Shown piece by piece: positions 2,761 through 19,368 of a DNA stretch of 29,801 nt. The position numbers and the translations under genes were made by a program. Position 1 is the stretch's first letter; each line of letters opens with the position of its first letter. The notes beneath the pieces are model-generated. The model was not told the DNA's origin. It did not search any database and worked only from the letters and a program-made list of their open reading frames with translations. Source of the DNA: an uncultured Dehalococcoidales bacterium (lineage in GTDB: Bacteria > Chloroflexota > Dehalococcoidia > GIF9 > AB-539-J10); the NCBI GenBank assembly GCA_964592065.1, contig CAZQDF010000001.1:1-29801 (forward strand). The letters are read 5' to 3'.

Positions 2761-2775
2761 ATCTCACACCCTTTA

Positions 2776-2801
2776 TCATTCTGAGCGTAGCGAAGAATCT
2801 C
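2776..2801 (+). repeat. Short palindromic (REP-like) element in the aspS-tig spacer
   Basis: TCATTCTGAGCGTAGCGAAGAATCTC has the same termini (CATTCTGAG ... CGAAGAATCTC) as the inner module at 6667-6699. Confidence 0.75.
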
Positions 2802-2829
2802 CTCTTTAGTTCCTTCCTATCATAAGGAT

Positions 2830-4644
2830 TCAAAGCTTTGGCTTACTGGGATAACCTTCGCGAAGAATCTCATGCTTCAATTTTAAATTTAGTTCATCAA
2901 GCTGGTTCCTATCAACGTATGAGGGACTGTCGAACATCAAGTCAGCAGCATTTTGGTTTTTGGGGAAGGCAATGACCTCCCTGATACTTTGCTCACCAGC
3001 GAATAGCATTAGCAATCGGTCTAGTCCTATGGCAATGCCACCATGGGGTGGTGCTCCATATTCCAGCGCTTTTAAAAGGCATCCAAAACGGCTTTCCATT
3101 TCCTCTTGGCTATAACCAAGAAGTTCAAATATTTTCTCCTGGAGCTGGCGCTTATGGATTCTGATGCTGCCGCTGCCAAGCTCGCAGCCGTTGCACACAA
3201 TATCATAATGGCGACCATGAACCTTGGCCAGTTCGGTATCAATCAACAGCATATCTTCCTCCCGCGGTGCAGTAAACGGATGATGCATTGACTCCCAGCG
3301 ACCTGCCGTCTCACTCCATTCCAACAGAGGGAAATCAACTATGAAGGTAAAAGCGAGTAGCTTAGCATCGGCTAGGCTAAGCCGGCGTGCCATCTCGCGA
3401 CGCAACTCGTCAAGCGCCCTGTTAGTCACCTCTAGTTTGTCAGCGATGAATAGTAAAAGGTCACCAGACTTTGCCTCGAATCTAGCAGCTATATTTTCCA
3501 GTTGAGCTTGAGTCAAGTATTTGGCAGCTGCTGACTTTACCTTATCTAATGCCACAGATTCTCCTGTAAAAGCTATAGTGGTTAACCCTTTAGCTCCGTT
3601 GGCTTCAGCCAGATTGATTAATCCATCAAGTTGATGGCGGCTATAATGACCACAACCAGGAACGCATATTCCCTTCACTTTGCCACCCTTCTCAATAACA
3701 GAACGGAAAACATCAAAGTTAGTTTGAGCAGCGATATCAGATATATCTTTGAGTTCCAAGCTGAATCTCATATCTGGTTTATCTGTGCCATAGCGCTCTG
3801 TTGCTTCCTTGTAGGAGAGGCGTGGGAAAGGCTTTAATACTCGCATTTCTGGTTTAATAATCTCTACAAGCGAGGTGAAAAGCTCCTCCATAAGTTGTAA
3901 TATGTCCTCTTCTTCTACAAAGCTCATCTCCAGGTCAAGCTGAGTAAATTCAGGTTGGCGATCCGCTCGAAGGTCTTCATCTCTAAAGCAGCGAGCTATC
4001 TGGAAATATTTTTCAAAACCAGCTACCATGAGGATTTGTTTGAGTTGTTGTGGAGATTGAGGGAGAGCATAAAACTTGCCTGGGTTGAGGCGGCTAGGTA
4101 CAAGGTAATCGCGAGCTCCTTCTGGAGTGCTCTTAATCAAAATAGGCGTCTCGATTTCGATAAAGCTTTTGGCATCGAGGAAGGCACGGATAAACTTTAT
4201 CGCCCTGTGGCGTAAGATGATATTATCTCGTACTCTAGGTCTTCTCAGGTACAGATAGCGACTTTTGAGGCAAAGTGATTCTTCAACTTCCACATCCTCA
4301 TTTATGTAAAATGGCGGAGTTTCTGAAGGATTAAGGATGACAGCTTTTTTAACTATGACTTCAATATCTCCGGTAGCCAATTTGGAGTTCTCTGTGCCTT
4401 TAGGACGGGGAACAATTTCTCCAGTAATCTGAATTACATACTCATTGCGGAGTGAACCAGCTATCTGGTAGGTATCTTGGGATATCTGCGGGTTGAAAAC
4501 TATTTGGACTACGCCTTCTGTATCTCGTAGGTCAATAAATACCATGCCGCCGTGGTCACGGCGTCGGTGCACCCAACCAGCTAAAGTTGCCTTCTGGCTA
4601 ACATGTTCTTTTCTCAGTTCACCACAACTATGGGTTTTGAGCAA
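2830..4644 (-). CDS. aspS: Aspartate--tRNA ligase, probably non-discriminating (Asp/Asn)
   Basis: GWVHRRRDHGG, GARDYLVPSR, ALPQSPQ, FRDEDLRADRQPEFTQLD, PPHGGIAIGLDR. His in RDHGG and Gly in RPKGTEN are the recognised ND-type determinants. Confidence 0.96.
   Translation of the reverse strand: MLKTHSCGELRKEHVSQKATLAGWVHRRRDHGGMVFIDLRDTEGVVQIVFNPQISQDTYQIAGSLRNEYVIQITGEIVPRPKGTENSKLATGDIEVIVKKAVILNPSETPPFYINEDVEVEESLCLKSRYLYLRRPRVRDNIILRHRAIKFIRAFLDAKSFIEIETPILIKSTPEGARDYLVPSRLNPGKFYALPQSPQQLKQILMVAGFEKYFQIARCFRDEDLRADRQPEFTQLDLEMSFVEEEDILQLMEELFTSLVEIIKPEMRVLKPFPRLSYKEATERYGTDKPDMRFSLELKDISDIAAQTNFDVFRSVIEKGGKVKGICVPGCGHYSRHQLDGLINLAEANGAKGLTTIAFTGESVALDKVKSAAAKYLTQAQLENIAARFEAKSGDLLLFIADKLEVTNRALDELRREMARRLSLADAKLLAFTFIVDFPLLEWSETAGRWESMHHPFTAPREEDMLLIDTELAKVHGRHYDIVCNGCELGSGSIRIHKRQLQEKIFELLGYSQEEMESRFGCLLKALEYGAPPHGGIAIGLDRLLMLFAGEQSIREVIAFPKNQNAADLMFDSPSYVDRNQLDELNLKLKHEILREGYPSKPKL
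2846..2871 (+). repeat. Repeat right-end fragment inside the aspS 3' end
   Basis: CTGGGATAACCTTCGCGAAGAATCTC resembles 6701-6726 CTCAGGGTAAACTCCGCGAAGCAATC. On the minus strand it encodes EILREGYP of the AspS tail. Confidence 0.55.
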
Positions 4645-4673
4645 AAATGGTCTCCCGCTTCGCGTATGTGCTG

Positions 4674-4702
4674 ATTATAGCTTATGGGAAGCTTTCCCTC
4701 AA
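4674..4702 (-). promoter_or_regulatory. sigma70-type promoter for aspS-tig-clpP
   Basis: Minus strand TTGAGG-N17-TATAAT, 29 nt upstream of the aspS TTG start. Confidence 0.6.
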
Positions 4703-4823
4703 TTGCTAACAGTGGGTTTCTTCCTTGGCAACTTAGTTTACTAACAGATATTTCCTAAGAGTCTCCTTTAGTAAAACTAGAGGATGGCTCAGCCTGGCAA
4801 TACTTAAAGAAGAAGCTTTTCAA

Positions 4824-5339
4824 TTACTTCTCCAGCATTATTGAAGCGACAATTCGGGCTGCTTTTTCAGGCGGAACACGACATTTCTTCGCCCCGTCAT
4901 CTTCAAGAAACTTCTGCATCTCCTTTGGATCCATGGTGTTATACTCTCTACCCATTATTTTAGGGCGTATATCACCACACATGGTGCTACCAAATTCCTC
5001 TTTAAAAGTCTCACAAAATCTCCATACTTTTTCCTTGAGTTTAAACGCCTCTTCCTTTGCTTCGGGAGTGTTGCTTCCGGGATCGTAAGGTTTATTTCTC
5101 CCATAGGCTAGCCCTAATGCCATGAGACCCCCAATAATTGCTCCACACGTCTCTTTTCTGCTCACAAGTCCAGGCATGAATGTTGCAGCTTTTAATATAT
5201 CATCTCCCCCGCCCAGGTTAAATTCTTCTTGCAGGGCAGCCAGTGTACCTTGAGCACAATTGACAAGAAGCTCTTCTTGGTCTCCCCCTTTCTTTGACAC
5301 TCGGTCAAGAATTTCTTCCTTTGAGCCTTTATTTAGCAT
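4824..5339 (-). CDS. C_GCAxxG_C_C family putative redox protein
   Basis: NCAQGTL...TCGAIIGG...TMCGDI...KKC pattern. The ATG at 5339 has SD GAGGAG; the ORF track starts at 5366. Confidence 0.85.
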   Translation of the reverse strand: MLNKGSKEEILDRVSKKGGDQEELLVNCAQGTLAALQEEFNLGGGDDILKAATFMPGLVSRKETCGAIIGGLMALGLAYGRNKPYDPGSNTPEAKEEAFKLKEKVWRFCETFKEEFGSTMCGDIRPKIMGREYNTMDPKEMQKFLEDDGAKKCRVPPEKAARIVASIMLEK

Positions 5340-5383
5340 CTTGGTTACTCCTCTTTTTCTCCTCATTATTTTTGTGATTTATT

Positions 5384-5407
5384 GAGATTGCTCTATCTGT
5401 AATGACA
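5384..5407 (-). repeat. Collapsed repeat remnant directly after the aroB stop codon
   Basis: Minus strand TGTCATTACAGATAGAGCAATCTC keeps both termini (TGTCATT, GCAATCTC) of the element at 6526-6581. Confidence 0.5.
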
Positions 5408-7255
5408 TCATGGCTGCAGCAGTTCCTGAAGAACAGCTAGTACATCTTGCCGAGGCACGCTGCTGTGAATCACCGCCTTGCCCATATCTTCTAAAAGCAC
5501 CCAACGGATTGCGCCTCCTCTTACCTTTTTATCCAGTTCCATAGCTCTCTCCACATCGGTTAAGTCTATTTTGGAGAAGCTTACAGGTAAATCAAATCTT
5601 TGTAATAGGGATTGTTGCTGTTTAACTCTGGCTGGAGATAAAAGACCTAACCTCTGACTAAGCTTACCTGCCCCCACCATGCCAATAGCTACTGCTTCAC
5701 CATGAAGGAATTGCCTATATTGAGTGGCTGCTTCCAATCCATGGGCAATAGTATGCCCATAGTTCAAAATAATACGTTTCCCCTTCTCCCTCTCATCTTC
5801 ACTAACAACCTGAGCCTTGAAAGCAGCGCTGCGAGCAATAGCCTGAGTGAGCATATCCGGCTCTAATTCCATTAGCTTAGCAGCGTTGATTTTCAAAAAC
5901 TTAAAGAACCCTTCATCTAGTATGAGACCATACTTAATCACTTCAGCCCATCCTGAGGTCAGCTCCCGCTGAGACAAAGTGGTAAGAGTCTGACAGTCAA
6001 CCAAGACAAAGTTAGGCTGATAGAAGGCGCCGATAAGATTTTTCCCCTGAGGGTGGTTAACGCCTACCTTGCCTCCAATGCTGGCATCAACCATAGCTAC
6101 CAAGCTGGTTGGTAGTTGTATCCAGGGCATGCCTCGCAAGAAAGTGGCAGCTACAAAGCCAGCTAAATCACCCACCATGCCACCACCCAAAGCGATGAGG
6201 ATGTCATCTCGCTCCGCTCGGTGTTCTACGAGAAAGTCATAGATTCTGTTAGCGAAGTCAATGTTTTTCGTTGTCTCGCCCGGCGGCACAACAAAGGAGT
6301 TCACTACGAAGCCGGCATGTTCCACTATTTCTCTAACCTTGCGGCCGTAGAGGGAAAATACAATTTCATCGCTAATTACATTGACCGTACCACATAAGCC
6401 CCTCTCTTTTATCTTTTCCCCTAGCTTGTCCAGTAGCCCCCAGCCCACAAAAATAGGATAACTTTGAGTGGTAGTTTTCACCTCGCAGGCAATGTCCTTA
6501 TCAGTATCATTGCAACCCTTCCCTTTGTCATTGCGGTGAGCCGAAGTCCTGAGTGTAGCGAAGGGGGAGCGTGGCAATCTCGGCGTTAAGTATTCCTGCG
6601 ATTGCTTCGGCATTTCATGTCTTGCGATGGCGCCCGAATTGTCATTGCGAGCCCTTCGCCTCTTGCCATTCTGAGGGAGAGAAGCGACCGAAGAATCTCG
6701 CTCAGGGTAAACTCCGCGAAGCAATCCCCAAGCTCTTGCTACCTCCTCAGCTACCTCACTAATGCTTAAGTCATCGGTGTGAACCGTCCAGTCAACATTG
6801 GCATAGTAAGGCTGCCTAGAGGCTTTAAGTTGCTTGATGTGCTCTAGGGGATTGTCCTGAGCTAGAAGAGGGCGAATTTCTGTTTCCGAGCCGTAAGCAG
6901 CATCCTGAAATAAGCGTTGATAGATTGTTTCTGGCTTGGCTTCAAGACAAATGATTAAACCACTTTGGGCAAGCAGTTCATAGTTTTGATTATCAACAAT
7001 AGCACCGCCTCCGATAGCTATGACCGTTTGTTTTTGCTGGCAAGCTTTCTTAATCATGTGCCGCTCCAGCTCCCTGAATTTTGCCTCCCCCTCCTGCTGA
7101 AAAATTTCACTAATTGGCTTGCCAGCTTGTTTAACTATCTCTTCGTCAGTATCAATGAAATCCCAGTTTAACCTCCGGGCTACCTCTCTGCCTACAAAAG
7201 ATTTGCCAGTAGCAGAAAAACCTGCCAGGATGATATTAGCTATTCGTTTGCTCAT
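5408..7255 (-). CDS. aroKB: Fused shikimate kinase / 3-dehydroquinate synthase (AroK-AroB) with a repeat-derived linker
   Basis: N-terminal GFSATGKS P-loop, DTD, GGG and RPLL. C-terminal GGGMVGDLAGF, PTSLVAMVDASIGGK, LNYGHT and HGEAVAIG. Confidence 0.93.
   Translation of the reverse strand: MSKRIANIILAGFSATGKSFVGREVARRLNWDFIDTDEEIVKQAGKPISEIFQQEGEAKFRELERHMIKKACQQKQTVIAIGGGAIVDNQNYELLAQSGLIICLEAKPETIYQRLFQDAAYGSETEIRPLLAQDNPLEHIKQLKASRQPYYANVDWTVHTDDLSISEVAEEVARAWGLLRGVYPERDSSVASLPQNGKRRRARNDNSGAIARHEMPKQSQEYLTPRLPRSPFATLRTSAHRNDKGKGCNDTDKDIACEVKTTTQSYPIFVGWGLLDKLGEKIKERGLCGTVNVISDEIVFSLYGRKVREIVEHAGFVVNSFVVPPGETTKNIDFANRIYDFLVEHRAERDDILIALGGGMVGDLAGFVAATFLRGMPWIQLPTSLVAMVDASIGGKVGVNHPQGKNLIGAFYQPNFVLVDCQTLTTLSQRELTSGWAEVIKYGLILDEGFFKFLKINAAKLMELEPDMLTQAIARSAAFKAQVVSEDEREKGKRIILNYGHTIAHGLEAATQYRQFLHGEAVAIGMVGAGKLSQRLGLLSPARVKQQQSLLQRFDLPVSFSKIDLTDVERAMELDKKVRGGAIRWVLLEDMGKAVIHSSVPRQDVLAVLQELLQP
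6526..6726. repeat. Composite of three nested palindromic elements (+,-,+) in frame in the aroK-aroB linker
   Basis: 6526-6581 TGTCATTGCG...GTGGCAATCTC with inner CCTGAGTGTAGCGAAGG; 6600-6632 minus CGCCATCGCAAGACATGAAATGCCGAAGCAATC; 6640-6726 TGTCATTGCGAG...CGAAGCAATC with inner CATTCTGAG...CGAAGAATCTC. Confidence 0.85.
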
Positions 7256-7276
7256 TGTTCATAAATACCCTCGGTC

Positions 7277-7305
7277 AGTATATTGGAAAAGCCAGACTGG
7301 AGCAA
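7277..7305 (-). promoter_or_regulatory. sigma70-type promoter for aroKB
   Basis: Minus strand TTGCTC-N17-TATACT, 21 nt upstream of the aroKB ATG. Confidence 0.5.
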
Positions 7306-7437
7306 GAGTCGCCAGCTCTAGCCTTGCTTTAAGTGAAAGCCTTTCCAAGACCTACTAAGAATACCTTCAAAAAGAGTATAATAAATCCATCAAAAGGATT
7401 GGATAAGGTAGACTCAAGGCAGGAGGTAAGCTGAGAG

Positions 7438-8187
7438 ATGAAACGATGTTCTGTATTAGCTGCCATCCTTTGCATTCTGGCATTGCTCCTAGTCAGTTGT
7501 ACTGGAGCACCACCATATTCCCCACCCGAGGTAATAAGTGCTCCTAGCACACCCAATGGACCTTCCACTGGAAGTATCACTCAGGTCTCGGCTTACATTA
7601 CAGGAGGGGCAACCTCAAGTTTAAGACATAGCGTTCAGTATCGCTTCAATTGGGGAGACGGAAGCTATTCCGACTGGTCATCGTCAACCAGCGCCTCTCA
7701 TTCTTGGTCGTCCCCTGGCAAGTACATGGTTGAAGCTCAGGCTAGGTCTTCTGTTAACTCCGGCATCCTTTAGAGTTGGTCTAGCAGCAAAAGCGTGACT
7801 ATCAATCCACCCAAGACAATAATCATAAAGTATTCGGTAACCATAACAAATGAAAGAGAGTCATGGCTAGGATGGACTATGAAGGCTGATCCAGGTTATA
7901 CCTACTTAGTGGTGAGTTTAGATATTGAAAACGATGGTTATGATTCATTTACCACGAATCCGCTTCGCTTTTGTGCGATAGTAAACAAAGTGAAATATGA
8001 CGCAGGCTTCTATTATCCACAGAAAGACGAGCTAAAAATGGTGGATTTACTGGACGGGGGGAAAATATCTGGGAAAATAGCACTTGAGATACCTGAAGAT
8101 GTGCTCAGTGCTGGCTACCAACTTGGATACAGGCTGGGGACTTGGGAGCCTTACAATATAAAATGGGTCGAAAATAATCTTAGCTGA
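7438..8187 (+). pseudogene. Lipoprotein (lipobox, PKD-like domain, DUF4352-like domain) interrupted by one in-frame TAG at 7771-7773
   Basis: ORFs 7438..7773 and 7795..8187 share a frame. Read-through gives ...VNSGIL*SWSSSKSVTINPPK, the usual end of a PKD-like strand. Lipobox LLLVS-C, PKD motif YRFNWGDG, DUF4352-like YLVVSLDIEN...GGKISGKIALEIP. SD GGAGGT upstream. Confidence 0.7.
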
Positions 8188-8209
8188 CCTAGGCTAGAGG
8201 AGGCTAGAT

Positions 8210-8392
8210 ATGCATCAAGCTGAGAACAAAGATATTTGGTATAACTGTGAGTTCTGCACGAGAAGATTCAAATCTGGTAAGGAGAGGACTGGCCAAAAGC
8301 TTTGTCGAAACTGTATTGAGCTAAGGAGACTAATACGCACTTGGGTTAAGGACGGAGTGTGGGTTAAGGAGGCGGAAGAGCCACAGCCATAA
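8210..8392 (+). CDS. 60-aa protein with two CxxC motifs (putative zinc finger)
   Basis: Strong SD GAGGAGG; CEFC...CRNC. Confidence 0.6.
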   Translation: MHQAENKDIWYNCEFCTRRFKSGKERTGQKLCRNCIELRRLIRTWVKDGVWVKEAEEPQP

Positions 8393-8434
8393 CAAAGCGA
8401 AGGAGGTACGAACTCTGAATCAAAGAGGGTATAT

Positions 8435-9001
8435 ATGAATCTAACGCATGAACAATTTACCAAAGAGTTACCAAAGTGGTATCACAAGTGGAGGAGAGAT
8501 AATACAAATTACTTTCCCGTAGAGAGACGCCTTACTAAGAAAGCTTACACTTTAGGTTACCTTGAGATAGGTGACTTGGTCGACATTACGCGTGTCCTGG
8601 GCAATCCCTTTAATATAGCTAATAGGGTTCGCAAGGCAAATACTGAAGACGAAATAAAGGAAAACACAGGGGAGGCTATTCAGCATCTTAGCAACCCAGC
8701 GAGGGCTCTTACTGATATGAAAAGCATTAGACAGTGGGGACGAACATACGCAAGTAAAACCTTAAGGTGTATTTGCCCATCTGATTATGGGGCACTGGAT
8801 AGCAAGCTAATTCATGGCATAAATTCAAACTATCTGTCCTCAAGAGACGAAGTGGAGCGATATTGCCAGTTTCTTGATTTCTGCCAACAGATTTGGCAGA
8901 TGGTTTCAGTGCCTGGACCAAGAGAAAATGGAGCGTGGTTTTTGGCTGATATAGAAATTGCACTTTTTCAGTTTGTGTGGGATGGCGGTAAGATTGTATA
9001 A
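8435..9001 (+). CDS. Hypothetical protein, possibly HhH-type DNA glycosylase-like fold
   Basis: 188-aa ORF. Segment ALTDMKSIRQWGRTYASKTL...YGALD resembles HhH-GPD spacing by eye; C-terminal DIEIALF. Confidence 0.45.
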   Translation: MNLTHEQFTKELPKWYHKWRRDNTNYFPVERRLTKKAYTLGYLEIGDLVDITRVLGNPFNIANRVRKANTEDEIKENTGEAIQHLSNPARALTDMKSIRQWGRTYASKTLRCICPSDYGALDSKLIHGINSNYLSSRDEVERYCQFLDFCQQIWQMVSVPGPRENGAWFLADIEIALFQFVWDGGKIV

Positions 9002-9134
9002 GCGTTTCCTGCTGCGTACTTATACAACCTATACACAAGAGAAATAGTCTAACTATAGAACCTTAAGAAAAGAATGCTTAGCAACATAATTATTGATGAT
9101 AAGATCCTAAAATGGTTAATTAAAGCCTAAGAGA

Positions 9135-9347
9135 TTACACTGTTACAGCTACTTCTGCCAACTCTACATCTTCAGGTATAGCGAGCCCGTCTTTCTGCAA
9201 AGACTCCAAATAGCCTTGTATAGCCTCTTTAGCATGCTCCAGAGCTTCTTCCTTCGTTCGCCCTTGGGTAACACACCCAGGCAAAGCTGGCACAATCACT
9301 GTATAGTATCCTTCGTTGTATTCCAGAAACACTTTATAACTTGTCAT
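9135..9347 (-). CDS. hicB: HicB family antitoxin (short form, no obvious C-terminal DNA-binding domain)
   Basis: GYYTVIVPALPGCVTQGRTKEEALEHAKEAIQGYLE. The ATG at 9347 has SD GAGGG; alternative TTG at 9359 overlaps the hicA stop. Confidence 0.92.
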   Translation of the reverse strand: MTSYKVFLEYNEGYYTVIVPALPGCVTQGRTKEEALEHAKEAIQGYLESLQKDGLAIPEDVELAEVAVTV

Positions 9348-9355
9348 CTTAACCC

Positions 9356-9583
9356 TCAAAGTAGCTTCACGAACTCTTCAACACTTAGACCAGCTTGTTC
9401 CAATATGCTCTCAAGGGTCTTAGGCGCTAGAGTTTCCCCAGCATGTATCGGAATGGTCACCCTTCTCCCTGGAAAATTTGGGTGCTTGTAATAAAAGTGA
9501 GATCCCTTTGAGTGATGAAGATACCAGCCCGCTCTTAATAATGCTCGCTCTACCTCCTTCCCTGTGATCCTTGGTAGTTTCAC
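9356..9583 (-). CDS. hicA: HicA family mRNA interferase toxin
   Basis: KGSH motif, VTIPIH, TLESILEQAGLS; 75 aa, directly upstream of hicB. Confidence 0.92.
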   Translation of the reverse strand: MKLPRITGKEVERALLRAGWYLHHSKGSHFYYKHPNFPGRRVTIPIHAGETLAPKTLESILEQAGLSVEEFVKLL

Positions 9584-9596
9584 TCCCTAGTTTACT

Positions 9597-10826
9597 CTAA
9601 TCCTTACATATTGACAATTGATAATTATGATAGTTTGCTGAGGTCTCCTTTAGATTATCGCCAGCGAATTTCTCTAACATGGCATCGGCTAAGACAATAG
9701 CTAACATTGCCTCGCCAATCACCCCAGCAGCGGGGACAACGCAAACATCGCTGCGCTCATAATGGGCTTGGGCTGCTTCGCCACTACGCAAATCTATGGA
9801 GGGCAAGGGCTTAGCTAGAGTAGCAATAGGTTTGACCGCGGCCCTGATTACAATGGGTTCTCCATTGCTTATGCCGCCCTCGATGCCGCCAGCGCGGTTA
9901 GTGGCGTGGCGCCAGGGGAAAGGTTGCTTTGAGGGATTGGGGCCAATAATATCCTGGGCTTGTGAACCTTTGAGCTTGGCCAAACTAAATCCATCACCTA
10001 CTTCTACTCCTTTAATAGCGTTGATGCTCATTATTGCCTGAGCAATTCTGCCGTCGAGGCGGTCATCCCAGCTAACATGGCTGCCCAAACCTATAGGCAC
10101 TCCATTGGCGATTACCTCAAAGATGCCACCTAGTGTATCTCCACTAGCTTTAGCTTCATCAATAGCTGTTATCATCTCCTTTCCCATCCCGGCATCAGCA
10201 CAGCGAACTGGAGAAGCTTCTACCTGCTGCCAATTTAGAGAGATTGCTTCGCGGAGACTGTCCTGAGTGGGATTCTTCAGCCGATTCTCTCCCTCAGAAG
10301 GATAAGAGGCGAAGGACTGGCAGCTAACAGGCCCGATTGATATAGTATGGCTGTGAATAGCAATGCCAAACTCCTTAAGAAATCTCTTGGCTACAGCTCC
10401 AGCGGCTACCCTGGCTGCTGTTTCCCTGGCGCTGGCTCTTTCTATTATCGGTCTAATGTCTTTGAGTCCATATTTAGTTACACCAGCTAGGTCGGCGTGT
10501 CCCGGGCGTGGACGAGTTATGGGTTCAGTTTCCTTCTCTAGCAAGGTGACACTCATCTCCTCCAGCCAGTTTTGCCAGTCCCGGTTGGGGATAAAGAGAG
10601 CAATAGGGCTGCCTATAGTAAGTCCATAGCGGACTCCGGAAACGATTTCAGCTTTGTCTTGTTCTATCTTCATGCGAGAGCCGCGGCCATAGCCTCCCTG
10701 GCGACGCTTTAACTCTCTATTGATGTGTTCCGCTTCCAAGGGGAGGCCAGCTACCATCCCTTCGGCTACGGCTATTAACCCCTTCCCGTGGGATTCTCCG
10801 GCGGTTAAAAAGCGAAAATGTCCCAT
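9597..10826 (-). CDS. aroC: Chorismate synthase with an internal repeat-derived insertion
   Basis: TAGESHG, RRQGGYGRG, PRPGHAD, ERASARETAAR, NRAGGIEGGISNG, RSDVCVVPAA. Confidence 0.97.
   Translation of the reverse strand: MGHFRFLTAGESHGKGLIAVAEGMVAGLPLEAEHINRELKRRQGGYGRGSRMKIEQDKAEIVSGVRYGLTIGSPIALFIPNRDWQNWLEEMSVTLLEKETEPITRPRPGHADLAGVTKYGLKDIRPIIERASARETAARVAAGAVAKRFLKEFGIAIHSHTISIGPVSCQSFASYPSEGENRLKNPTQDSLREAISLNWQQVEASPVRCADAGMGKEMITAIDEAKASGDTLGGIFEVIANGVPIGLGSHVSWDDRLDGRIAQAIMSINAIKGVEVGDGFSLAKLKGSQAQDIIGPNPSKQPFPWRHATNRAGGIEGGISNGEPIVIRAAVKPIATLAKPLPSIDLRSGEAAQAHYERSDVCVVPAAGVIGEAMLAIVLADAMLEKFAGDNLKETSANYHNYQLSICKD
10242..10315 (-). repeat. Palindromic element in frame inside aroC
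   Basis: The minus strand matches 6653-6726 (plus strand) ungapped at 62/74 nt by hand count. It encodes roughly SFASYPSEGENRLKNPTQDSLREAI. Confidence 0.9.
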
Positions 10827-11764
10827 TAGCTTTGATATAAATATTGAGGCTGAGGATAAGTGGGGCTTAATGTCTCTAGCAAAACTATATCCTGTCCGCT
10901 TAACCCTAGCAATTTCATCTGGATGACGCTGACCAACTCTCTCAGGTCCAGCCCTAGAATCGATTCTAACAGAGATGGACGCTTAAGCTTATAATATTCC
11001 ACTTTAGGAGTTGCAATGTTGGCTAGTTGTGCTGCCAAATCTATGGCTGTGTTCAGCCCTCCTAGTTCATCAACCAAGCCTAATTCCTTGGCTTGATTGC
11101 CAGTGTACAGTTGCCCTGTGGCTAAGCTCCTGACTTGCTCCTTGCTTAGTCTCCTGCCTTCTGCCACAACCTCGATGAATTGCTTATAGTATTCATCGGT
11201 CATTTGCTGCATGATTTCCTTCTCGTCAAGAGTTAGTTCTCTTAATCCTGAATACATATCTTTATATTTGCCACCTTTGAAGGTTTGCATTTCAATCCCC
11301 AGCTTCTCGTAAAGTCCCTCAACGTTAGGTATTTGAGAAATAACACCGATGCTCCCAGTCAATGTGCCGGGAAGGGCTACAATCTTATCTGCCTTGGCTG
11401 AGATGTAATAGCCTCCGGAGGCAGCCATGGTTTCCATACTTACCACGATGGGCTTTGTCTGCGTAACCTTTTCCATTTCCTCTAAAATTTCTTGGCAAGG
11501 TGCCACTGCTCCGCCAGGGCTCTCTATGCGAAGGACAATTGCCTTTACTGCCATGTCCTTCTCTGCTCTATCCAGTTGCTCCTTTACCAGTTCTGGTGTA
11601 ATGGTAGAGCCAAAAAATATATAAGTGCCCTCGGTTGCGATAGTCCCGCTAAGAGGAATCACAGCAACTTTATTCCCAGCTTCTATTGGCATACAACTGG
11701 TGGGAATTACTATCGCAACTAGCAATAATATGGCTAAACCAATAACTACTATTTTCCCCTTCAT
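10826..11764 (-). CDS. sppA: Signal peptide peptidase SppA, short (36K) type
   Basis: LRIESPGG, AASGGYYIS (catalytic Ser), TGSIGV, GKYKD, GLVDELG; N-terminal hydrophobic anchor. Overlaps aroE (ATGA) and aroC (TAATG). Confidence 0.92.
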   Translation of the reverse strand: MKGKIVVIGLAILLLVAIVIPTSCMPIEAGNKVAVIPLSGTIATEGTYIFFGSTITPELVKEQLDRAEKDMAVKAIVLRIESPGGAVAPCQEILEEMEKVTQTKPIVVSMETMAASGGYYISAKADKIVALPGTLTGSIGVISQIPNVEGLYEKLGIEMQTFKGGKYKDMYSGLRELTLDEKEIMQQMTDEYYKQFIEVVAEGRRLSKEQVRSLATGQLYTGNQAKELGLVDELGGLNTAIDLAAQLANIATPKVEYYKLKRPSLLESILGLDLRELVSVIQMKLLGLSGQDIVLLETLSPTYPQPQYLYQS

Positions 11765-12651
11765 CCTCCTCCTTTTAGCAATATTTGTTCGGCCTTGTAA
11801 AACATTATGTCAACTGGAGGCTTTTTCCCCGTCCATAACTCAAAAGAGGCAACGCCCTGATATACTAGCATAGCTAGACCCCTAAGTATATTAGCTCCTA
11901 CATTTCGTGCTAACTGTAACAAAGGCGTTTCCCAAGGGTTATATACTAAATCGCAGACTAAGGCATTTTGGGGAATCAGTTCAGCACTTAGAGGTGACTG
12001 CCCTGCCTGAGAACTGTATTTCATTCCGATAGTAGTGCAGTTGACTATAAGATGGCAGTGTTCTAAAGTCTCGCCTGAGTATAAACTCTGCCAGGGCAAA
12101 GCGGTGACCTTACTTTTTAATTCTTCTGGGCTTGCTGAAGAGTCTTTAACATAGCGATTTATGCTATCTGCCAATGTCGCGGCTCTCTCTAAAGTCCGAT
12201 TGATAATAAGAAGCGAGCTCGCTTTCTCCTTCACCAAAGCAAAGCTAACTGCCTTGGCTACCCCGCCAGCACCCAAGATTACCGCCCGCTTACCTTCTGG
12301 CTCAAAGCGCCCATCTTTATATAACGCCTCAATAAAGCCATAGCTGTCAGTGTTGAAACCCAGGAGTCTATTATCCCTTTTGACTATAGTGTTGACTGCC
12401 CCAATCGAACTTGCCAGGTCATCAACTTCGTCTAATAAAGGCAAGACTGTTTCTTTATATGGAACGGTGACGTTGGCTCCAAGGCTTTGAGGTTTTCTTA
12501 AGTTATCTACTGCACCTTGAAGCTTTTCCGGGCTTGTTTCCCAAGCTTCATAATGAATGTCAAGGTGGTAGTAATCCAAGGCGGCTTGCTGGAAATAAGG
12601 GGAGATGGAATGCTTGATGGGGTAACCAATGAGACCAATGAACTTTGGCAT
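11761..12651 (-). CDS. aroE: Shikimate dehydrogenase
   Basis: HSISP, GANVTVPYKE, GAVNT, NTDSYG, GAGG, DLVYNP, MLVYQG. Confidence 0.96.
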   Translation of the reverse strand: MPKFIGLIGYPIKHSISPYFQQAALDYYHLDIHYEAWETSPEKLQGAVDNLRKPQSLGANVTVPYKETVLPLLDEVDDLASSIGAVNTIVKRDNRLLGFNTDSYGFIEALYKDGRFEPEGKRAVILGAGGVAKAVSFALVKEKASSLLIINRTLERAATLADSINRYVKDSSASPEELKSKVTALPWQSLYSGETLEHCHLIVNCTTIGMKYSSQAGQSPLSAELIPQNALVCDLVYNPWETPLLQLARNVGANILRGLAMLVYQGVASFELWTGKKPPVDIMFYKAEQILLKGGG

Positions 12652-12652
12652 T

Positions 12653-13084
12653 TTAACACCTCAAGCTATCCAGAAAACCTTGGAGGATAAAAGCAGCTGC
12701 TACAGCATCTCGGTGCTGTTTCCGTTTATTTCTTTTTGTGCCAGCTTCAGCCATTAATCGCTCAGCAGCTATGGTGGATAACCGCTCATCCCATAATTGT
12801 ATGTTGACCTGGTTGAGGCCACTTCGCTTTGCTCGAGATGACAATTTCTCAGCAAAAGATGTTACTTTGTTAGCTTGCTGGCCAAGATGACCATTTAAAG
12901 AGTAGGGCAACCCGACTACAACGCATTCTGCTTCGTATTCTTTAATGAGCTTGAGAATGGCATCTAGGGTTGCTTCTTCATCCCTACCGCCAATAACAGC
13001 TAGAGGGATAGCTAGAATGCCTTGCGGATCACTTACTGCTACTCCAGTTCTTTTATCTCCGATATCTAGCCCTAAGCTGCGCAT
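12653..13084 (-). CDS. ruvX: RuvX/YqgF pre-16S rRNA nuclease (putative Holliday junction resolvase)
   Basis: GLDIGDKRTGVA, VVGLP, WDERLST, DAVAAAFILQ. ATG at 13084 preferred over 13186, which overlaps alaS. Confidence 0.95.
   Translation of the reverse strand: MRSLGLDIGDKRTGVAVSDPQGILAIPLAVIGGRDEEATLDAILKLIKEYEAECVVVGLPYSLNGHLGQQANKVTSFAEKLSSRAKRSGLNQVNIQLWDERLSTIAAERLMAEAGTKRNKRKQHRDAVAAAFILQGFLDSLRC
12822..12843 (-). repeat. Half element in frame inside ruvX
   Basis: Minus strand TGTCATCTCGAGCAAAGCGAAG (TGTCAT tag plus GAGC..AGCGAAG core) encodes LSSRAKRS. Confidence 0.6.
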
Positions 13085-13139
13085 TTTTATTCTTACACCC
13101 CTCGCTAGATAATGAGTGGGGTGGATGGAAGCTCTCCTT

Positions 13140-16139
13140 TTAATCCTCTTCCGTTGAAGTGGAGGAGATTTGCTTTGCAATGACACTTTTAACTGAGATT
13201 AAGGCCTCATTAAGCTTAGCGATATCTTTGCCGCCTGCCTGAGCCATGGTTGCCTTGCCGCCGCCGCCACCGCCAGTGACTTTTGCTACCTCTCTGATAA
13301 TGTCGCCGGCATGAAATCCTTTGGCTGCTAAGTCAGGGGTTACCATGGCCACGAAGTTGGGCTTGTTATCGTAAACTGTAGCCAAAACTACTATAGCGCT
13401 CTTTAACTTGTCCCGCAATATATCGCCCATTTCTCTAAGGATAAGTATAGTTAGTGGCGGCACCTTAGCTGCTAAGACTGTTACACCATCCACCTTCTCA
13501 ACTTGCTCGAGTAAGGATTCTGCTACTTTCCTCGATAGCTCCCTTTCCAAGCAAAGCGTGCGTCTGTGCTCTGTTTCCAGTTCACTAAGCAAGGTTTTTA
13601 CCTTGTCATGGGTTTCCTCGAGTGGACTCTCTACCTCCTTAGCTATATTTTGTAAGGCTGAGAGACGTTCTTCAACCAAAGATTCCGCAGCTCGTCCGGT
13701 CACCGCTTGAATGCGGCGTAATCCGGTACCAATACTGCTTTCATTGGTTATAAAGAAGAGGCCAATTTCACCTGTTGACTTGACATGGGTGCCTCCACAA
13801 AGCTCCTTGCTTATCGGAGGCTCGCCAATTTCGATTACCCGAACCATTTCTCCATATTTCTCTTCAAAAAAGGCGAGAGCACCTTCAGCAATAGCTTGCC
13901 CATAAGGGATGTCTTTTTTTGCTTTCACTGGCAAGTTTTGTCGCACCTTTTCATTAACCCGTCTCTGAACCTCCATGAGCTGCTCTTCGGTTATGGCTGC
14001 TAAGTGTGAAAAATCAAATCTGAGCCTTTCTGGCTCTACCAACGAACCTCTCTGTTGAACACGACTACCCAATACTTGTCTCAAAGCAAGCTGAAGGAGA
14101 TGGGTAGCGGTGTGGTTGCGGGCGATGTCGAGACGGCGAGCAGCATCAATTTTCGCCTCTACTTCATCGCCAACGGATATACGGCCATTAACAACTTGAC
14201 CCAAATGAACAATGGCTCCAGCAGCAAGGTTGCCAAACGGCGACCAAACAGTTCTAGCAATATCAGCCCAGCCAGAATGACAAGTTATCCTACCGAGATC
14301 ACCCACCTGTCCTCCCATCTCAGCATAAAATGGCGTCTTATCCAGCACAATGGCAACCAATTTCCCTTCTTCTACCAGAGACACCGCAATACCTGAGTCT
14401 TGATCTAACAAGTAGCTAATTTTAGAGCGGCTCTCTAAGCTATCATAACCAGTAAACTCAGTCGGCTCAGGTATGTATTCAACTCTAGCTCCCTCATGCC
14501 CAGTGGCTCTGTCTGAGGCAGTAACAAACCTATGTCCTGCCCTCGCCCTTTCTCGCTGTTTTTCCATCTCAGCCTGGAAACTCTCCCAATCTATGGATAA
14601 ATCTCGTTCCCTAGCGATCTCAGCAGTTAGTTCTTGAAGAAAGCCATAAGTATCATGAAGTATAAACACCTCAAAGCCTGTCAACTCATTAGCAACTGAA
14701 TCAAGATCATCTTCTAGCCTTTCTAAGCCTTCCCTCAGGCTTCGCTTAAGAGCGTCAAAGGCATCGGGGAGCTTAAATGGATCGTATCCAGACACAATTC
14801 CCTTTAGATCTGTCAAATCTTTCTCCACTGGTTGTAGGCTTTCCACAACAGCATCTCTATATCCTATACCTAGTACATGCTTCCATGCCTTACAATCTCG
14901 AAGAAAGTGATCTATGGCAGCATCGAGCTTGTGCGTAAGATCAATAATATCTTTTTGGGATATTGCTTTTTCAAATGCCTTCTTGAAAATAGGGAGGTAA
15001 CCTACCAATTCCTCTCGCATCCTAAAAAGGGTTTGTTCCAAGATACCCATCCCAATTGGGAGTGTTTGCTGGAATTTCTCCTCCTCGACTTCGACTACCT
15101 GTCTAATCAAGTCTCTATTGGCTGTTAGCTCAGGGTATATGTCGCTCATTTGGGAGATAACCACCTCAGTAATTTGGCTGAGGAAAGGCTTATCCAAGCC
15201 CAGCCTTTTCCCATAAACCGAGGCACGCTTGAGTATTCGCTGCAGAACATAGCCCCTTCCTTCGTTGGAAGGCATAACACCATCGGCAATAAGGAAGACA
15301 ATGCCGCGCCCATGCTCAGCGATAATTCTGATGGCCCGATCGGTATTTTCATCCTCGCCGTAATTTCTATTGACTAGCTGACAAATCTGTTTTACTAAGG
15401 GCGAGAAAAGCTCTGTTTCATAAGGGGAGGGTTTGCCTTGAGTAGCTGCGGCAGTCCTCTCCAGTCCCATCCCGGTATCAATATTCGGTTTGGGTAAAGG
15501 AGTGCGTTGCCCGTTGCTATCTTGATTATATTGAGTAAATACCAGGTTCCATATTTCAGAGAAGCGACCACACTCGCAATTAGGTTTACATTCAGGCCTA
15601 CCGCAGCCAAATTCCTCGCCCAAGTCATAATGGATTTCACTGCAAGGACCACAGGGGCCTGAATCGCCAACCGGACCCCAGAAGTTATCCTCCTCACCAA
15701 ATCTCAATATCTTTTGAGAGGGAACACCCACTTCCTGCCAATAAGTGAAGGCCTCGTCGTCATCAAGGTAGATAGTTATCCAGAGCCGCTCCTTGGGCAG
15801 CTTCAGATACTTAGTAACGAATTCCCAGGCCCAAGAAATAGCTTCCTTCTTAAAGTAATCACCCACGCTGAAGTTTCCCAGCATCTCAAAAAAGGTAAGG
15901 TGCTTGCTATCACCAACTGAATCTATATCAGTAGCGCGAAAGCATTTCTGGCAGGAGGCCAACCTTGGGCTGGGGGGCGCTTCCAACCCCAAGAAATAAG
16001 GCTTAATCTGTACCATGCCGGCACTGGTTAATAACAAAGTGGGGTCTTTATAGGGAATCAAAGATGAGCTAGGGAGAACTTTATGTCCTCTGTCCTGGAA
16101 AAACTCCAGAAAGGCCTGTCTAATTTCGTCACCAGTCAC
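13140..16139 (-). CDS. alaS: Alanine--tRNA ligase with a ~100-aa internal insertion
   Basis: DPTLLLTSAGM, TFFEMLGNFS, IDTGMGLER, editing NHTATH and ELCGGTH, C-terminal GGGGG...AQAGG; 999 aa. Confidence 0.97.
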   Translation of the reverse strand: MTGDEIRQAFLEFFQDRGHKVLPSSSLIPYKDPTLLLTSAGMVQIKPYFLGLEAPPSPRLASCQKCFRATDIDSVGDSKHLTFFEMLGNFSVGDYFKKEAISWAWEFVTKYLKLPKERLWITIYLDDDEAFTYWQEVGVPSQKILRFGEEDNFWGPVGDSGPCGPCSEIHYDLGEEFGCGRPECKPNCECGRFSEIWNLVFTQYNQDSNGQRTPLPKPNIDTGMGLERTAAATQGKPSPYETELFSPLVKQICQLVNRNYGEDENTDRAIRIIAEHGRGIVFLIADGVMPSNEGRGYVLQRILKRASVYGKRLGLDKPFLSQITEVVISQMSDIYPELTANRDLIRQVVEVEEEKFQQTLPIGMGILEQTLFRMREELVGYLPIFKKAFEKAISQKDIIDLTHKLDAAIDHFLRDCKAWKHVLGIGYRDAVVESLQPVEKDLTDLKGIVSGYDPFKLPDAFDALKRSLREGLERLEDDLDSVANELTGFEVFILHDTYGFLQELTAEIARERDLSIDWESFQAEMEKQRERARAGHRFVTASDRATGHEGARVEYIPEPTEFTGYDSLESRSKISYLLDQDSGIAVSLVEEGKLVAIVLDKTPFYAEMGGQVGDLGRITCHSGWADIARTVWSPFGNLAAGAIVHLGQVVNGRISVGDEVEAKIDAARRLDIARNHTATHLLQLALRQVLGSRVQQRGSLVEPERLRFDFSHLAAITEEQLMEVQRRVNEKVRQNLPVKAKKDIPYGQAIAEGALAFFEEKYGEMVRVIEIGEPPISKELCGGTHVKSTGEIGLFFITNESSIGTGLRRIQAVTGRAAESLVEERLSALQNIAKEVESPLEETHDKVKTLLSELETEHRRTLCLERELSRKVAESLLEQVEKVDGVTVLAAKVPPLTILILREMGDILRDKLKSAIVVLATVYDNKPNFVAMVTPDLAAKGFHAGDIIREVAKVTGGGGGGKATMAQAGGKDIAKLNEALISVKSVIAKQISSTSTEED

Positions 16140-16190
16140 TTTTGGTCGTCTCTTCTGTTTTCAAGCAATACCGGTTTAGCTATCAATTGA

Positions 16191-16233
16191 TGCCCGACTT
16201 CGACTATGCTAGCATAAACCTTGCCATCGGGCA
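16191..16233. repeat. Hairpin enclosing a degenerate repeat module upstream of alaS
   Basis: TGCCCGA (16191-16197) / TCGGGCA (16227-16233) stem around CTTCGACTATGCTAGCATAAACC, which resembles the CTTCG...GCTCAGGGTAAAC module. Confidence 0.35.
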
Positions 16234-16335
16234 AAGAGCTTTGCTGAACGCAATAATTTCGCCAGGGGTAGTATGGTTGATTGGCTTATGAGATGACGCC
16301 GACCCACTCGTGCGCTGCTACTAGGGTCACCTCTC

Positions 16336-19321: not shown

Positions 19322-19368
19322 AAAGCGAAGGGGAGTTTCCCCGTAAGGGGTGGCTCCCCTTCGCTTTT
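19322..19368 (+). terminator. Intrinsic (probably bidirectional) terminator
   Basis: Perfect 14-bp stem AAAGCGAAGGGGAG/CTCCCCTTCGCTTT, inner CCCC-GTAA-GGGG hairpin, followed by T run. Confidence 0.8.

Follow-up and report, generated by a model that had tools for sequence, protein, structure and literature searches.

The closest described counterparts of the repeats that we report here, short hairpin modules in a 29,801-nt contig of an uncultured Dehalococcoidales bacterium (CAZQDF010000001.1 of assembly GCA_964592065.1; hereafter the window, which is the entire contig), are the CGTC-tagged repetitive extragenic palindromes (REPs). The parts of the account of these elements on which we draw (Di Nocera, De Gregorio, Rocco 2013, BMC Genomics 14:522; PMC3733652) describe a CGTC tag, often TGTC or CCTC, a stem of 8–9 bp that starts with A-T pairs, a loop of 4–5 nt and a tail with the consensus CCA. 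The same parts place these REPs in five phyla, with alphaproteobacteria dominant, count Neisseria dRS3 and the Rickettsia palindromic elements (RPEs) RPE-4 and RPE-6 among them, note in-frame intragenic copies and state that the elements "apparently lack a dedicated transposase". For this CGTC-tagged half of the REPs, no mechanism of movement has been known since 2013. In the window and its relatives we find modules lodged in one another's loops and, in frame, in core genes, and we put at roughly 0.65 the probability that they represent a short REP-like hairpin element, non-autonomous and in or next to the CGTC/TGTC-tagged REP superfamily, that spreads in trans and builds nests.

Set against the parts of PMC3733652 used here, the modules resemble CGTC-tagged REPs in their unpaired CGTC/TGTC 5′ tag, in the A-T, T-A start of the stem, and in occurring in several phyla with in-frame intragenic copies and no associated transposase; the short unpaired tail may be shared too, at least by the alphaproteobacterial copies of the core described below, which mostly end in CCAG. 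They differ in that the stem is 5 bp rather than 8–9 bp, the loop is a conserved 13-nt string (GAGCGNAGCGAAG) rather than 4–5 nt, and the tail in Dehalococcoidia is CTC where the consensus there is CCA. Furthermore, the modules are systematically inserted at several levels into each other's loops, whereas the word "nested" does not occur in those parts of PMC3733652, and Chloroflexota is not among the phyla named there. The conserved 13-nt loop and the systematic loop-in-loop nesting are what is new relative to the CGTC-tagged REPs. The Bradyrhizobium CGTC-1 repeats are described in those same parts as having unusual loops, which may correspond to the present core, a correspondence left unconfirmed by the supplements of PMC3733652, in which the core string is absent.

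Rickettsia palindromic elements are likewise palindromic repeats that lie in frame in housekeeping genes, are tolerated as extra peptide and also occur between genes; they differ from the present case, in which related lineages have filled the same protein sites more than once and in different ways. RPE-1, confined to one genus, consists of one unit of 100–150 bp, as opposed to the nests of units shorter than 30 nt seen here. The small dispersed repeats of cyanobacteria, known from the work of Elhai et al. in 2008, are said to be very small and to insert both into each other and into conserved genes, which are not destroyed by them; they reportedly have other sequences and hosts and lack the architecture of tag, stem and GCGAAG loop. 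Unlike miniature inverted-repeat transposable elements, the present repeats have no terminal inverted repeats of 15–30 bp and no target-site duplication. With IS200/IS605 single-strand transposition they share the absence of target duplication, the involvement of hairpins (recognized in those systems) and, here, the placement of a unit directly 3′ of CTTCGC; they differ in having one hairpin rather than two subterminal ones, no tnpA, and cleavage sites that are not defined. REPIN-RAYT systems (Bertels and Rainey 2011, PMC3116915) also comprise short hairpin repeats that are presumed to be non-autonomous and to depend for movement on a trans-acting, single-copy enzyme with single-stranded DNA as its substrate, and form inverted doublets, of which the window holds one (A1/A2 at 6526–6632); the differences are that the tag here is TGTC/CGTC and not GTAG, that no RAYT gene was seen in the stretches compared here, that nesting predominates over doublets, and that the core is cross-phylum whereas REPINs are lineage-specific. 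A preliminary description of this DNA had named RPEs and CGTC/TGTC-tagged REPs as precedents and, by the parts of PMC3733652 used here, these are the right ones. In the literature we found no description of this repeat family in Dehalococcoidia and no instance of its peptide or DNA strings.

Nested modules in and around aroK-aroB and aroC

The modules share a plan in which a TGTC tag is followed by a 5-nt stem, the loop GAGCGNAGCGAAG, the complementary stem and a CTC tail. The final bases of the loop overlap the 3′ stem (conserved CGAAG), and the conserved loop is 11–13 nt long; it holds an inner 2-bp GC/GAA/GC mini-hairpin. In the window the tag is TGTC, TATC or TGCC, the tail is CTC or CCC, and there are three types of stem, ATTGC/GCAAT (A), ATTCT/AGAAT (B) and CCCT/AGGG (C). 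Stems of the family begin A-T (ATTGC/GCAAT, ATTCT/AGAAT, ACTCT/AGAGT), as those of the REP superfamily do. The copies in the window, together with the two genes that host the nests, are as follows.

2774 to 2801, plus strand: simple B module TATCATTCTGAGCGTAGCGAAGAATCTC (TATC-ATTCT-GAGCGTAGCGA-AGAAT-CTC), intergenic between tig and aspS
2855 to 2871, plus strand: right-half module remnant CCTTCGCGAAGAATCTC (CCTTCG/CGAAGAATCTC), antisense to aspS
5384 to 5407, minus strand: short degenerate module TGTCATTAC-AGATAGA-GCAATCTC, adjoining the aroK-aroB stop codon
5408 to 7255, minus strand: host gene, aroK-aroB fusion of 615 aa (identified by Pfam)
6526 to 6581, plus strand: module A1, with an ATTGC/GCAAT stem and a nested CCT/AGG-type (C-like) module in the same orientation (TCCTGAGTGTAGCGAAGGGG), in the aroK-aroB linker, read antisense
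6600 to 6632, minus strand: module A2, a degenerate A module inverted relative to A1, in the aroK-aroB linker
6640 to 6728, plus strand: three-level nest of 89 nt with outer A module TGTCATTGCGAG..CGCGAAGCAATCCC, encoding GLLRGVYPERDSSVASLPQNGKRRRARND of the AroK-AroB linker
9597 to 10826, minus strand: host gene aroC, chorismate synthase of 409 aa (identified by Pfam)
10238 to 10328, minus strand: the three-level nest again, here within aroC and read in sense orientation, its outer left half degenerate (GTTAGCTGCCAG)
12820 to 12845, minus strand: degenerate simple module TTGTCATCTCGAGCAAAGCGAAGTG in ruvX, encoding LSSRAKRS

The nest at 6640–6728 consists of an outer A module that contains a reversed C module (6652–6663 and 6700–6714), which in turn contains a forward B module (6664–6699). 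Its counterpart in aroC is sufficiently similar that the two (6646–6726 and 10242–10322; 81 nt, 83% complementary) form by far the longest inverted repeat in the window, the next-longest being 38 nt at 74%. Among the peptides predicted to derive from the inserts in AroC and AroK-AroB of the window is SEGENRLKNPTQDSLR. Among the simpler copies, the module at 2774–2801 is predicted to fold into the expected 5-bp hairpin with the inner GC-GAA-GC mini-hairpin, and the copy at 5384–5407, in which four of five stem positions pair and the conserved loop is missing, is the weakest that we accepted. The remnant at 2855–2871 encodes part of the last codons of aspS, in the C-terminal tail of AspRS (..HEILREGYPSKPKL); AspRS of T. 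thermophilus ends ~13 residues before that of the window, and a related module lies at the same end of aspS in L128. (Note that relatives of the window are denoted here by L-numbers, among them L128, GCA_030612025.1; L127, GCA_964435965.1; and L129, GCA_964394145.1.)

Stem sequence varies among copies and the two arms covary. The mean number of Watson-Crick pairs in true left-right combinations was 4.13 of 5, as against 2.99 when arms were cross-paired, and none of 20,000 permutations, run on the true sequences, reached the observed total, a figure that kinship among copies inflates; despite this inflation by descent, at least three stem classes are fully complementary. Single half-sites with at most two mismatches were not above chance in the window (11 versus 6.9 expected, and 5 versus 2.1), and the case for a family therefore rests on full modules, paired stems and the comparison with relatives.

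The preliminary description had proposed a single family, of more than one stem type, whose members nest within each other, which the modules at 6526–6728 and 10238–10328 bear out. Six of the seven sites it listed are members of the family, the exception being 16198, which is a conserved palindrome upstream of alaS. It had also placed copies in frame in essential or biosynthetic open reading frames (ORFs), and in-frame copies do lie in ORFs that Pfam identifies as aspS, aroK-aroB, aroC and ruvX; the origin it suggested is in keeping with the closest AroC homologues, which are labeled Dehalococcoidia and come from sediment and subsurface metagenomes. These genes form part of a syntenic housekeeping block on the minus strand that comprises clpP, tig, aspS, a C_GCAxxG_C_C-family gene (encoding a putative redox-active protein), the aroK-aroB fusion, aroC, an S49 peptidase gene, aroE, ruvX, alaS, mscS and holA; further sugar-metabolism genes follow the block.

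Graded insertions at fixed protein sites

In a comparison with solved structures, the aroC segment lies in a stretch that is gapped, and of lesser length, in the enzymes of Aquifex and M. tuberculosis, and B. subtilis YrrK is 6 residues shorter at the site of the ruvX module. The segments are thus lacking in distant orthologues, as the preliminary description would have it, and the same sites are empty in some close orthologues and partly filled or more filled in others, which differ by stepwise additions in multiples of three. Among 120 close homologues of AroC the commonest length is 389 residues, the others range from 391 to 504, and all of the extra length is confined to two sites. Site 1 is graded across orthologues (13, 19, 33 and 59 residues), with steps of 18 and 42 nt. 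At 13 residues, in L129 and L001, it holds an A-like module alone (..GAGCAAAGCGAAGCAATCTC); the L001 orthologue is without the 60 nt at window positions 10254–10313 (20 codons, FASYPSEGENRLKNPTQDSL). At 19 residues, in L127, a minimal reversed C module of 18 nt (CCCTTCGCTCAGGGTAAG) has been added directly after GAG/CAG, and at 33 residues, in the window and L003, a further 42 nt, the B module, lies between TTCGC and TCAGG of C. The site reaches 59 residues in L126. At each of the two reconstructed steps the added unit, read on its own strand, is located immediately 3′ of CTTCGC, and neither the 18-nt nor the 42-nt addition is flanked by the target duplication for which the preliminary description had proposed to look. 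Site 2 is empty in the window and holds 18 extra residues in L128 and 67 in L126. (An AlphaFold2 model of AroC, built from a 23-sequence alignment, had a mean pLDDT, the predicted local distance difference test score, of 34 and was unusable for placing the insert.)

Metagenome assembly produced all of the sequences compared here, and it can be misled by short repeats, so that chimeric joins at short repeats might in principle have produced the insertions. We regard such an artefact as barely credible: the same in-frame aroC insertion is present in independent assemblies from different samples (L003, L004, L005 and L139/L141), the reading frame is open through every in-gene copy, and the flanking synteny is intact.

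The ruvX module (KLSSRAKRSGL) coincides exactly with the site of nests in L126 (41 residues) and L128 (39 residues), which validates what had been the weakest copy in the preliminary description. To compare insertions irrespective of the repeats, we listed every insertion of at least four residues relative to L129 in eight gene families. Internal insertions in ruvX, aroC and aroK-aroB contained module motifs in at least one genome each; insertions in alaS and a 5-residue insertion in aspS contained no module motif or a single chance-level match. In-frame insertions absent from orthologues, the hallmark of RPEs, are thus found in aroC, aroK-aroB and ruvX of the window and in tilS, mfd, rnhB and aroB of relatives. 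The repeat load differs strongly among close relatives, with L128 and L127 rich in repeats and L129 holding almost none.

The aroK-aroB fusion itself is conserved, and its inter-domain linker is short and unrelated in the repeat-poor L129 and built of repeats in the window, L003 and L127. Approximately 80 residues of the linker in the window are repeat-derived, for the most part from the modules at 6526–6581, 6600–6632 and 6640–6728. When the window was compared with L003 over 6.46 kb at 95% identity, the sole indel of more than 13 nt inside the compared genes was one of 114 nt (38 codons) in this linker. The segment missing from L003 is the A1/A2 dimer with flanking bases, bounded by an 11-nt direct repeat, TTGTCATTGCG, and because the more distant L127 has part of it, as VIARHEMPKQSQEYL, the difference is probably a deletion in L003 between repeated left halves and not a new insertion in the window. 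Repeat arrays are therefore shown both to grow and to shrink, the latter by deletion between repeated halves.

This difference, bounded by a direct repeat and best read as a deletion, also favors an account of the nests that involves no transposition, in which ancient REP-like seeds expand, contract and exchange by gene conversion, microhomology template switching and slippage, with the conserved GAG...CGAAG loop edges serving as homology. We hold this to be unlikely as the full explanation, and still a serious rival, and return to it below as the relevant evidence arises.

Two further differences were seen in the same region of L003. A 2.3-kb segment between aroK-aroB and aroC (7256–9596), which holds a PKD-domain ORF, a DUF4352 ORF and two unknown ORFs on the opposite strand, is absent from L003, in which the two genes are 197 nt apart. 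Upstream of aroC in L003 lies a 62-residue ORF (5302–5490) that matches only the C-terminal domain of shikimate dehydrogenase and is separated from an intact aroE by a 4-kb glycosyltransferase/GH65 block; this ORF is apparently a duplicated fragment that a rearrangement left behind.

The 63-nt inner unit and the reading-frame filter

Nesting of B within C is not peculiar to the window. In a scan of metagenome contigs, the junction of this inner unit, written C[B], was present in 42 contigs, at ~20 distinct sites in unrelated loci, roughly half of which touch a real ORF. From a reading of the sequences rather than a family search, the host genes include tilS, mfd, the dehydroquinate synthase domain of aroK-aroB, the C terminus of rnhB, ruvX, a pfkB-type kinase gene and a gene for a DnaD-like protein. 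Of 48 copies examined, ~40 follow the ..GAGC of an outer module and six follow ..GAAC, and most continue with CGCGAAG and a stem matching that on the outer left. Of 22 distinct variants of the inner unit, 18 measure exactly 63 nt. The longer variants of 93, 111 and 174 nt contain further nested units, and the only one whose length is not divisible by three (113 nt) is intergenic. The preliminary description had proposed to test coding copies for a bias toward lengths divisible by three; the 63-nt length is found in coding and non-coding copies alike.

The junctions always fall at the conserved loop edges, with the insertion point at GAG^CG..GCGAAG, as would be expected were the units exchanged by recombination among resident repeats. 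However, junction homology amounts to just 3–7 nt, and the same 63-nt unit occurs at ~20 unrelated sites within outer modules of at least five stem classes (ATTGC/GCAAT, ATTCT/AGAAT, ACTCT/AGAGT, TCCT/AGGA and CCCT/AGGG in the metagenome nests), both of which argue against recombination as the source of the nests.

Four of the six frames of the nest are open, two of them strongly hydrophilic (grand average of hydropathy ~ -1.4) and two near neutral to hydrophobic. The hydrophilic frames encode CHSEPFASCHSEGEKRPKNLAQGKLREES and, on the other strand, EILRGVYPERDSSVASLPQNDKRRRAQND. All copies preceded by at least 70 ORF residues (~10 distinct gene sites) are read in the first, sense, hydrophilic frame, and the copy in the aroK-aroB linker is read in the hydrophilic antisense frame; at the ~10 gene sites the equally open hydrophobic frames are not used inside genes even once. 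In-gene copies are free of stop codons and lie at loops, linkers and termini. Restriction to the hydrophilic frames is what selection on translated loops would produce. This visible filter bears on how proteins gain loops, and the repeats represent a second clear case, after Rickettsia, of repeats that add 20–77 residues to essential enzymes. For metagenome annotation, these same repeats generate many spurious "hypothetical proteins".

In tilS of one relative (L135, ~3340–3440) we observed that the loop of the B module holds a different palindrome with a GTAG..CTAC frame (GTAGTTGCC..GGCAACTAC), so that a GTAG-type repeat is nested, in frame, within a TGTC-type one (a 93-nt unit).

The plain core across phyla and the question of movement

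A scan for CATTSYGAGCGNAGCGAAGVAATC in one genome per species showed that the plain 24-nt core, CATTGCGAGCGNAGCGAAGCAATC, is present unchanged in at least 120 genome stretches from many phyla, where chance would give ~0.2 matches by our own arithmetic (48 variants of a 24-mer over 1.2e12 positions). Among the matches listed, the hosts include Bradyrhizobium, sphingomonads, Micavibrio, Legionellales, Coxiellaceae, Hymenobacter, Bacteroidales and Fibrobacter, together with Planctomycetota, Omnitrophota, Desulfobacterota, Bacillota, Anaerolineae and other Chloroflexi. In these same listed matches the core is preceded by CGT and followed by CAG in most alphaproteobacterial copies, and flanked by TGT and TC in most other phyla, with no conservation beyond these immediate flanks. 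Over 146 cross-phylum copies, C (78%) or T (18%) occupies position -3, and G (96%) and T (96%) occupy -2 and -1, directly before the first C of the core; the final C of the core is followed by C in 82%, A in 75% and G in 62%. A perfect copy of the core, GTCATTGCGAGCGAAGCGAAGCAATCTC, lies in the aroC hot spot of L128, and this ties the family of the window to the pan-bacterial core. Further copies beyond the window, for which the preliminary description had called, are thus plentiful both in relatives and across phyla. An identical core in different phyla demands spread into further sites and genomes as well as local exchange, and this too speaks against recombination alone.

Conservation of the core across phyla, together with the covarying stems and the report that REPs are for the most part located downstream of ORFs, where they are probably transcribed (Di Nocera et al., in the parts of PMC3733652 used here), could instead reflect a host function under selection, with the modules acting as protein-binding sites, as mRNA stabilizers or terminators, or as supercoiling or replication signals, and the in-gene copies being by-products. 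We think this quite improbable, as copy number varies strongly among the close relatives compared above, copies occur in both orientations and within coding regions, the hairpins are weak, and Rfam gave no match at the gathering threshold in the whole window and none at E ≤ 1 in 6450–6800. In particular, the use of both orientations argues against a role of the in-gene copies at the RNA level.

In the reading that we favor, spread in trans of a non-autonomous hairpin element, copies would move by way of a single-strand DNA hairpin intermediate with the aid of an enzyme encoded elsewhere, for which the prime candidate would be a Y1 HUH enzyme of the RAYT or IS200/IS605 type. The preferred landing site would be the exposed loop of a resident copy, where the CTTCGC of a reversed incoming unit could pair with the resident GCGAAG; selection would keep only in-frame, loop-compatible insertions, and a site once seeded could then grow into a nest. 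The strongest helix predicted within the nest is that between CTTCGC of the reversed unit and GCGAAG of its host, and this helix, together with the placement of incoming units directly 3′ of CTTCGC, suggests a pairing-guided integration of the IS200/IS605 or RAYT kind. Transposition itself, through a trans-acting enzyme on a single-strand hairpin, is what we infer. The earlier reading of the repeats as an in-frame, self-inserting family is supported.

Several results weigh against spread in trans. The predicted folding of simple and nested copies as single-stranded DNA is no better than that of shuffled sequence (z-scores from -0.1 to +1.9); the evidence for stem pairing is therefore covariation and not thermodynamic stability, and "palindromic" is a weak description of repeats with 5-bp stems that fold like shuffled sequence. 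No fresh insertion was caught in any near-identical pair of empty and filled sites. Moreover, the shortest ("empty") aroC and ruvX sites still hold module-like remnants (SEAIS and SRAKAAN), and first insertions into naive sequence are therefore unobserved; that every hot spot has such remnants already in its shortest orthologues is in keeping with recombination or template switching among resident repeats, which would give much the same pattern. As to an enzyme, the absence of which likewise favors recombination, none of the ORFs of the window has a transposase or nuclease domain by Pfam, in line with the preliminary description, which had stated that no mobilizing enzyme is present there; clustering of the ORFs beside 120 cross-phylum core loci revealed no recurrent neighboring enzyme gene, the only clusters being spurious ORFs that read through the repeats; and no candidate flanked by modules, of the nuclease or transposase kind that had been proposed, was found in 390 kb of related contigs, in which a single-copy gene is easily missed. 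The earlier suggestion of an active or recently active element accordingly stands in so far as there is turnover among relatives; as regards recent activity, no new insertion was seen and the sole recent indel is probably the deletion between 11-nt repeats.

A bolder interpretation, which we consider distinctly unlikely, is that the loop hairpin GAGCGNAGCGAAG is a pan-bacterial selfish element with an undiscovered mode of movement of its own, CTTCGC/GCGAAG-guided integration into its own loops, and that the enzyme is conserved host machinery or belongs to an unrecognized family rather than being a RAYT or known transposase. If true, such an element would, in some lineages, keep supplying essential proteins with new surface peptides. 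The Dehalococcoidia lineage eases the testing of movement: relatives rich and poor in repeats are syntenic, the points of insertion are resolved to single nucleotides, and growth is stepwise at fixed sites in aroC, ruvX and aroK-aroB, which makes possible a search for a gene whose presence tracks repeat load.

Other palindromes, insertions and repeats

The site at 16198 was rejected as a repeat copy. It is a perfect palindrome, TATGCTAGCATA, upstream of alaS that is kept in five relatives, including the repeat-poor one, and it sits in a GCCCGA..TCGGGC hairpin (16190–16235). E. coli AlaRS represses its own gene at a palindrome, and the palindrome in the window looks like an operator.

Also rejected as a product of the repeats was a 97-residue insertion in AlaRS (residues 365–461; window 14757–15047) between the catalytic and tRNA-recognition parts, which contains no module motifs. 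It has no Pfam match and is absent from AlaRS of Aquifex, L126, L127 and L129; in L128 an insertion of 94 residues occupies the same position, without detectable similarity to that of the window.

Between a marR-like gene and ychF (19322–19367) there is a GC-rich hairpin, AAAGCGAAGGGGAG..CTCCCCTTCGCTTTT, that is made of two inverted GCGAAGGG half-sites (the right half of a C-type module). It looks like an intrinsic terminator, and its likeness to the modules could mean that it is a relative of the repeat family or could be coincidence. Finally, L128 carries a second short repeat, GGTGAGGGTGA, which occurs 6–7 times in 21 kb of that relative (for example at 9981, 11802, 13004, 15439, 18795 and 19380), including within its own aroK-aroB linker, where it encodes HPHLNPLP.

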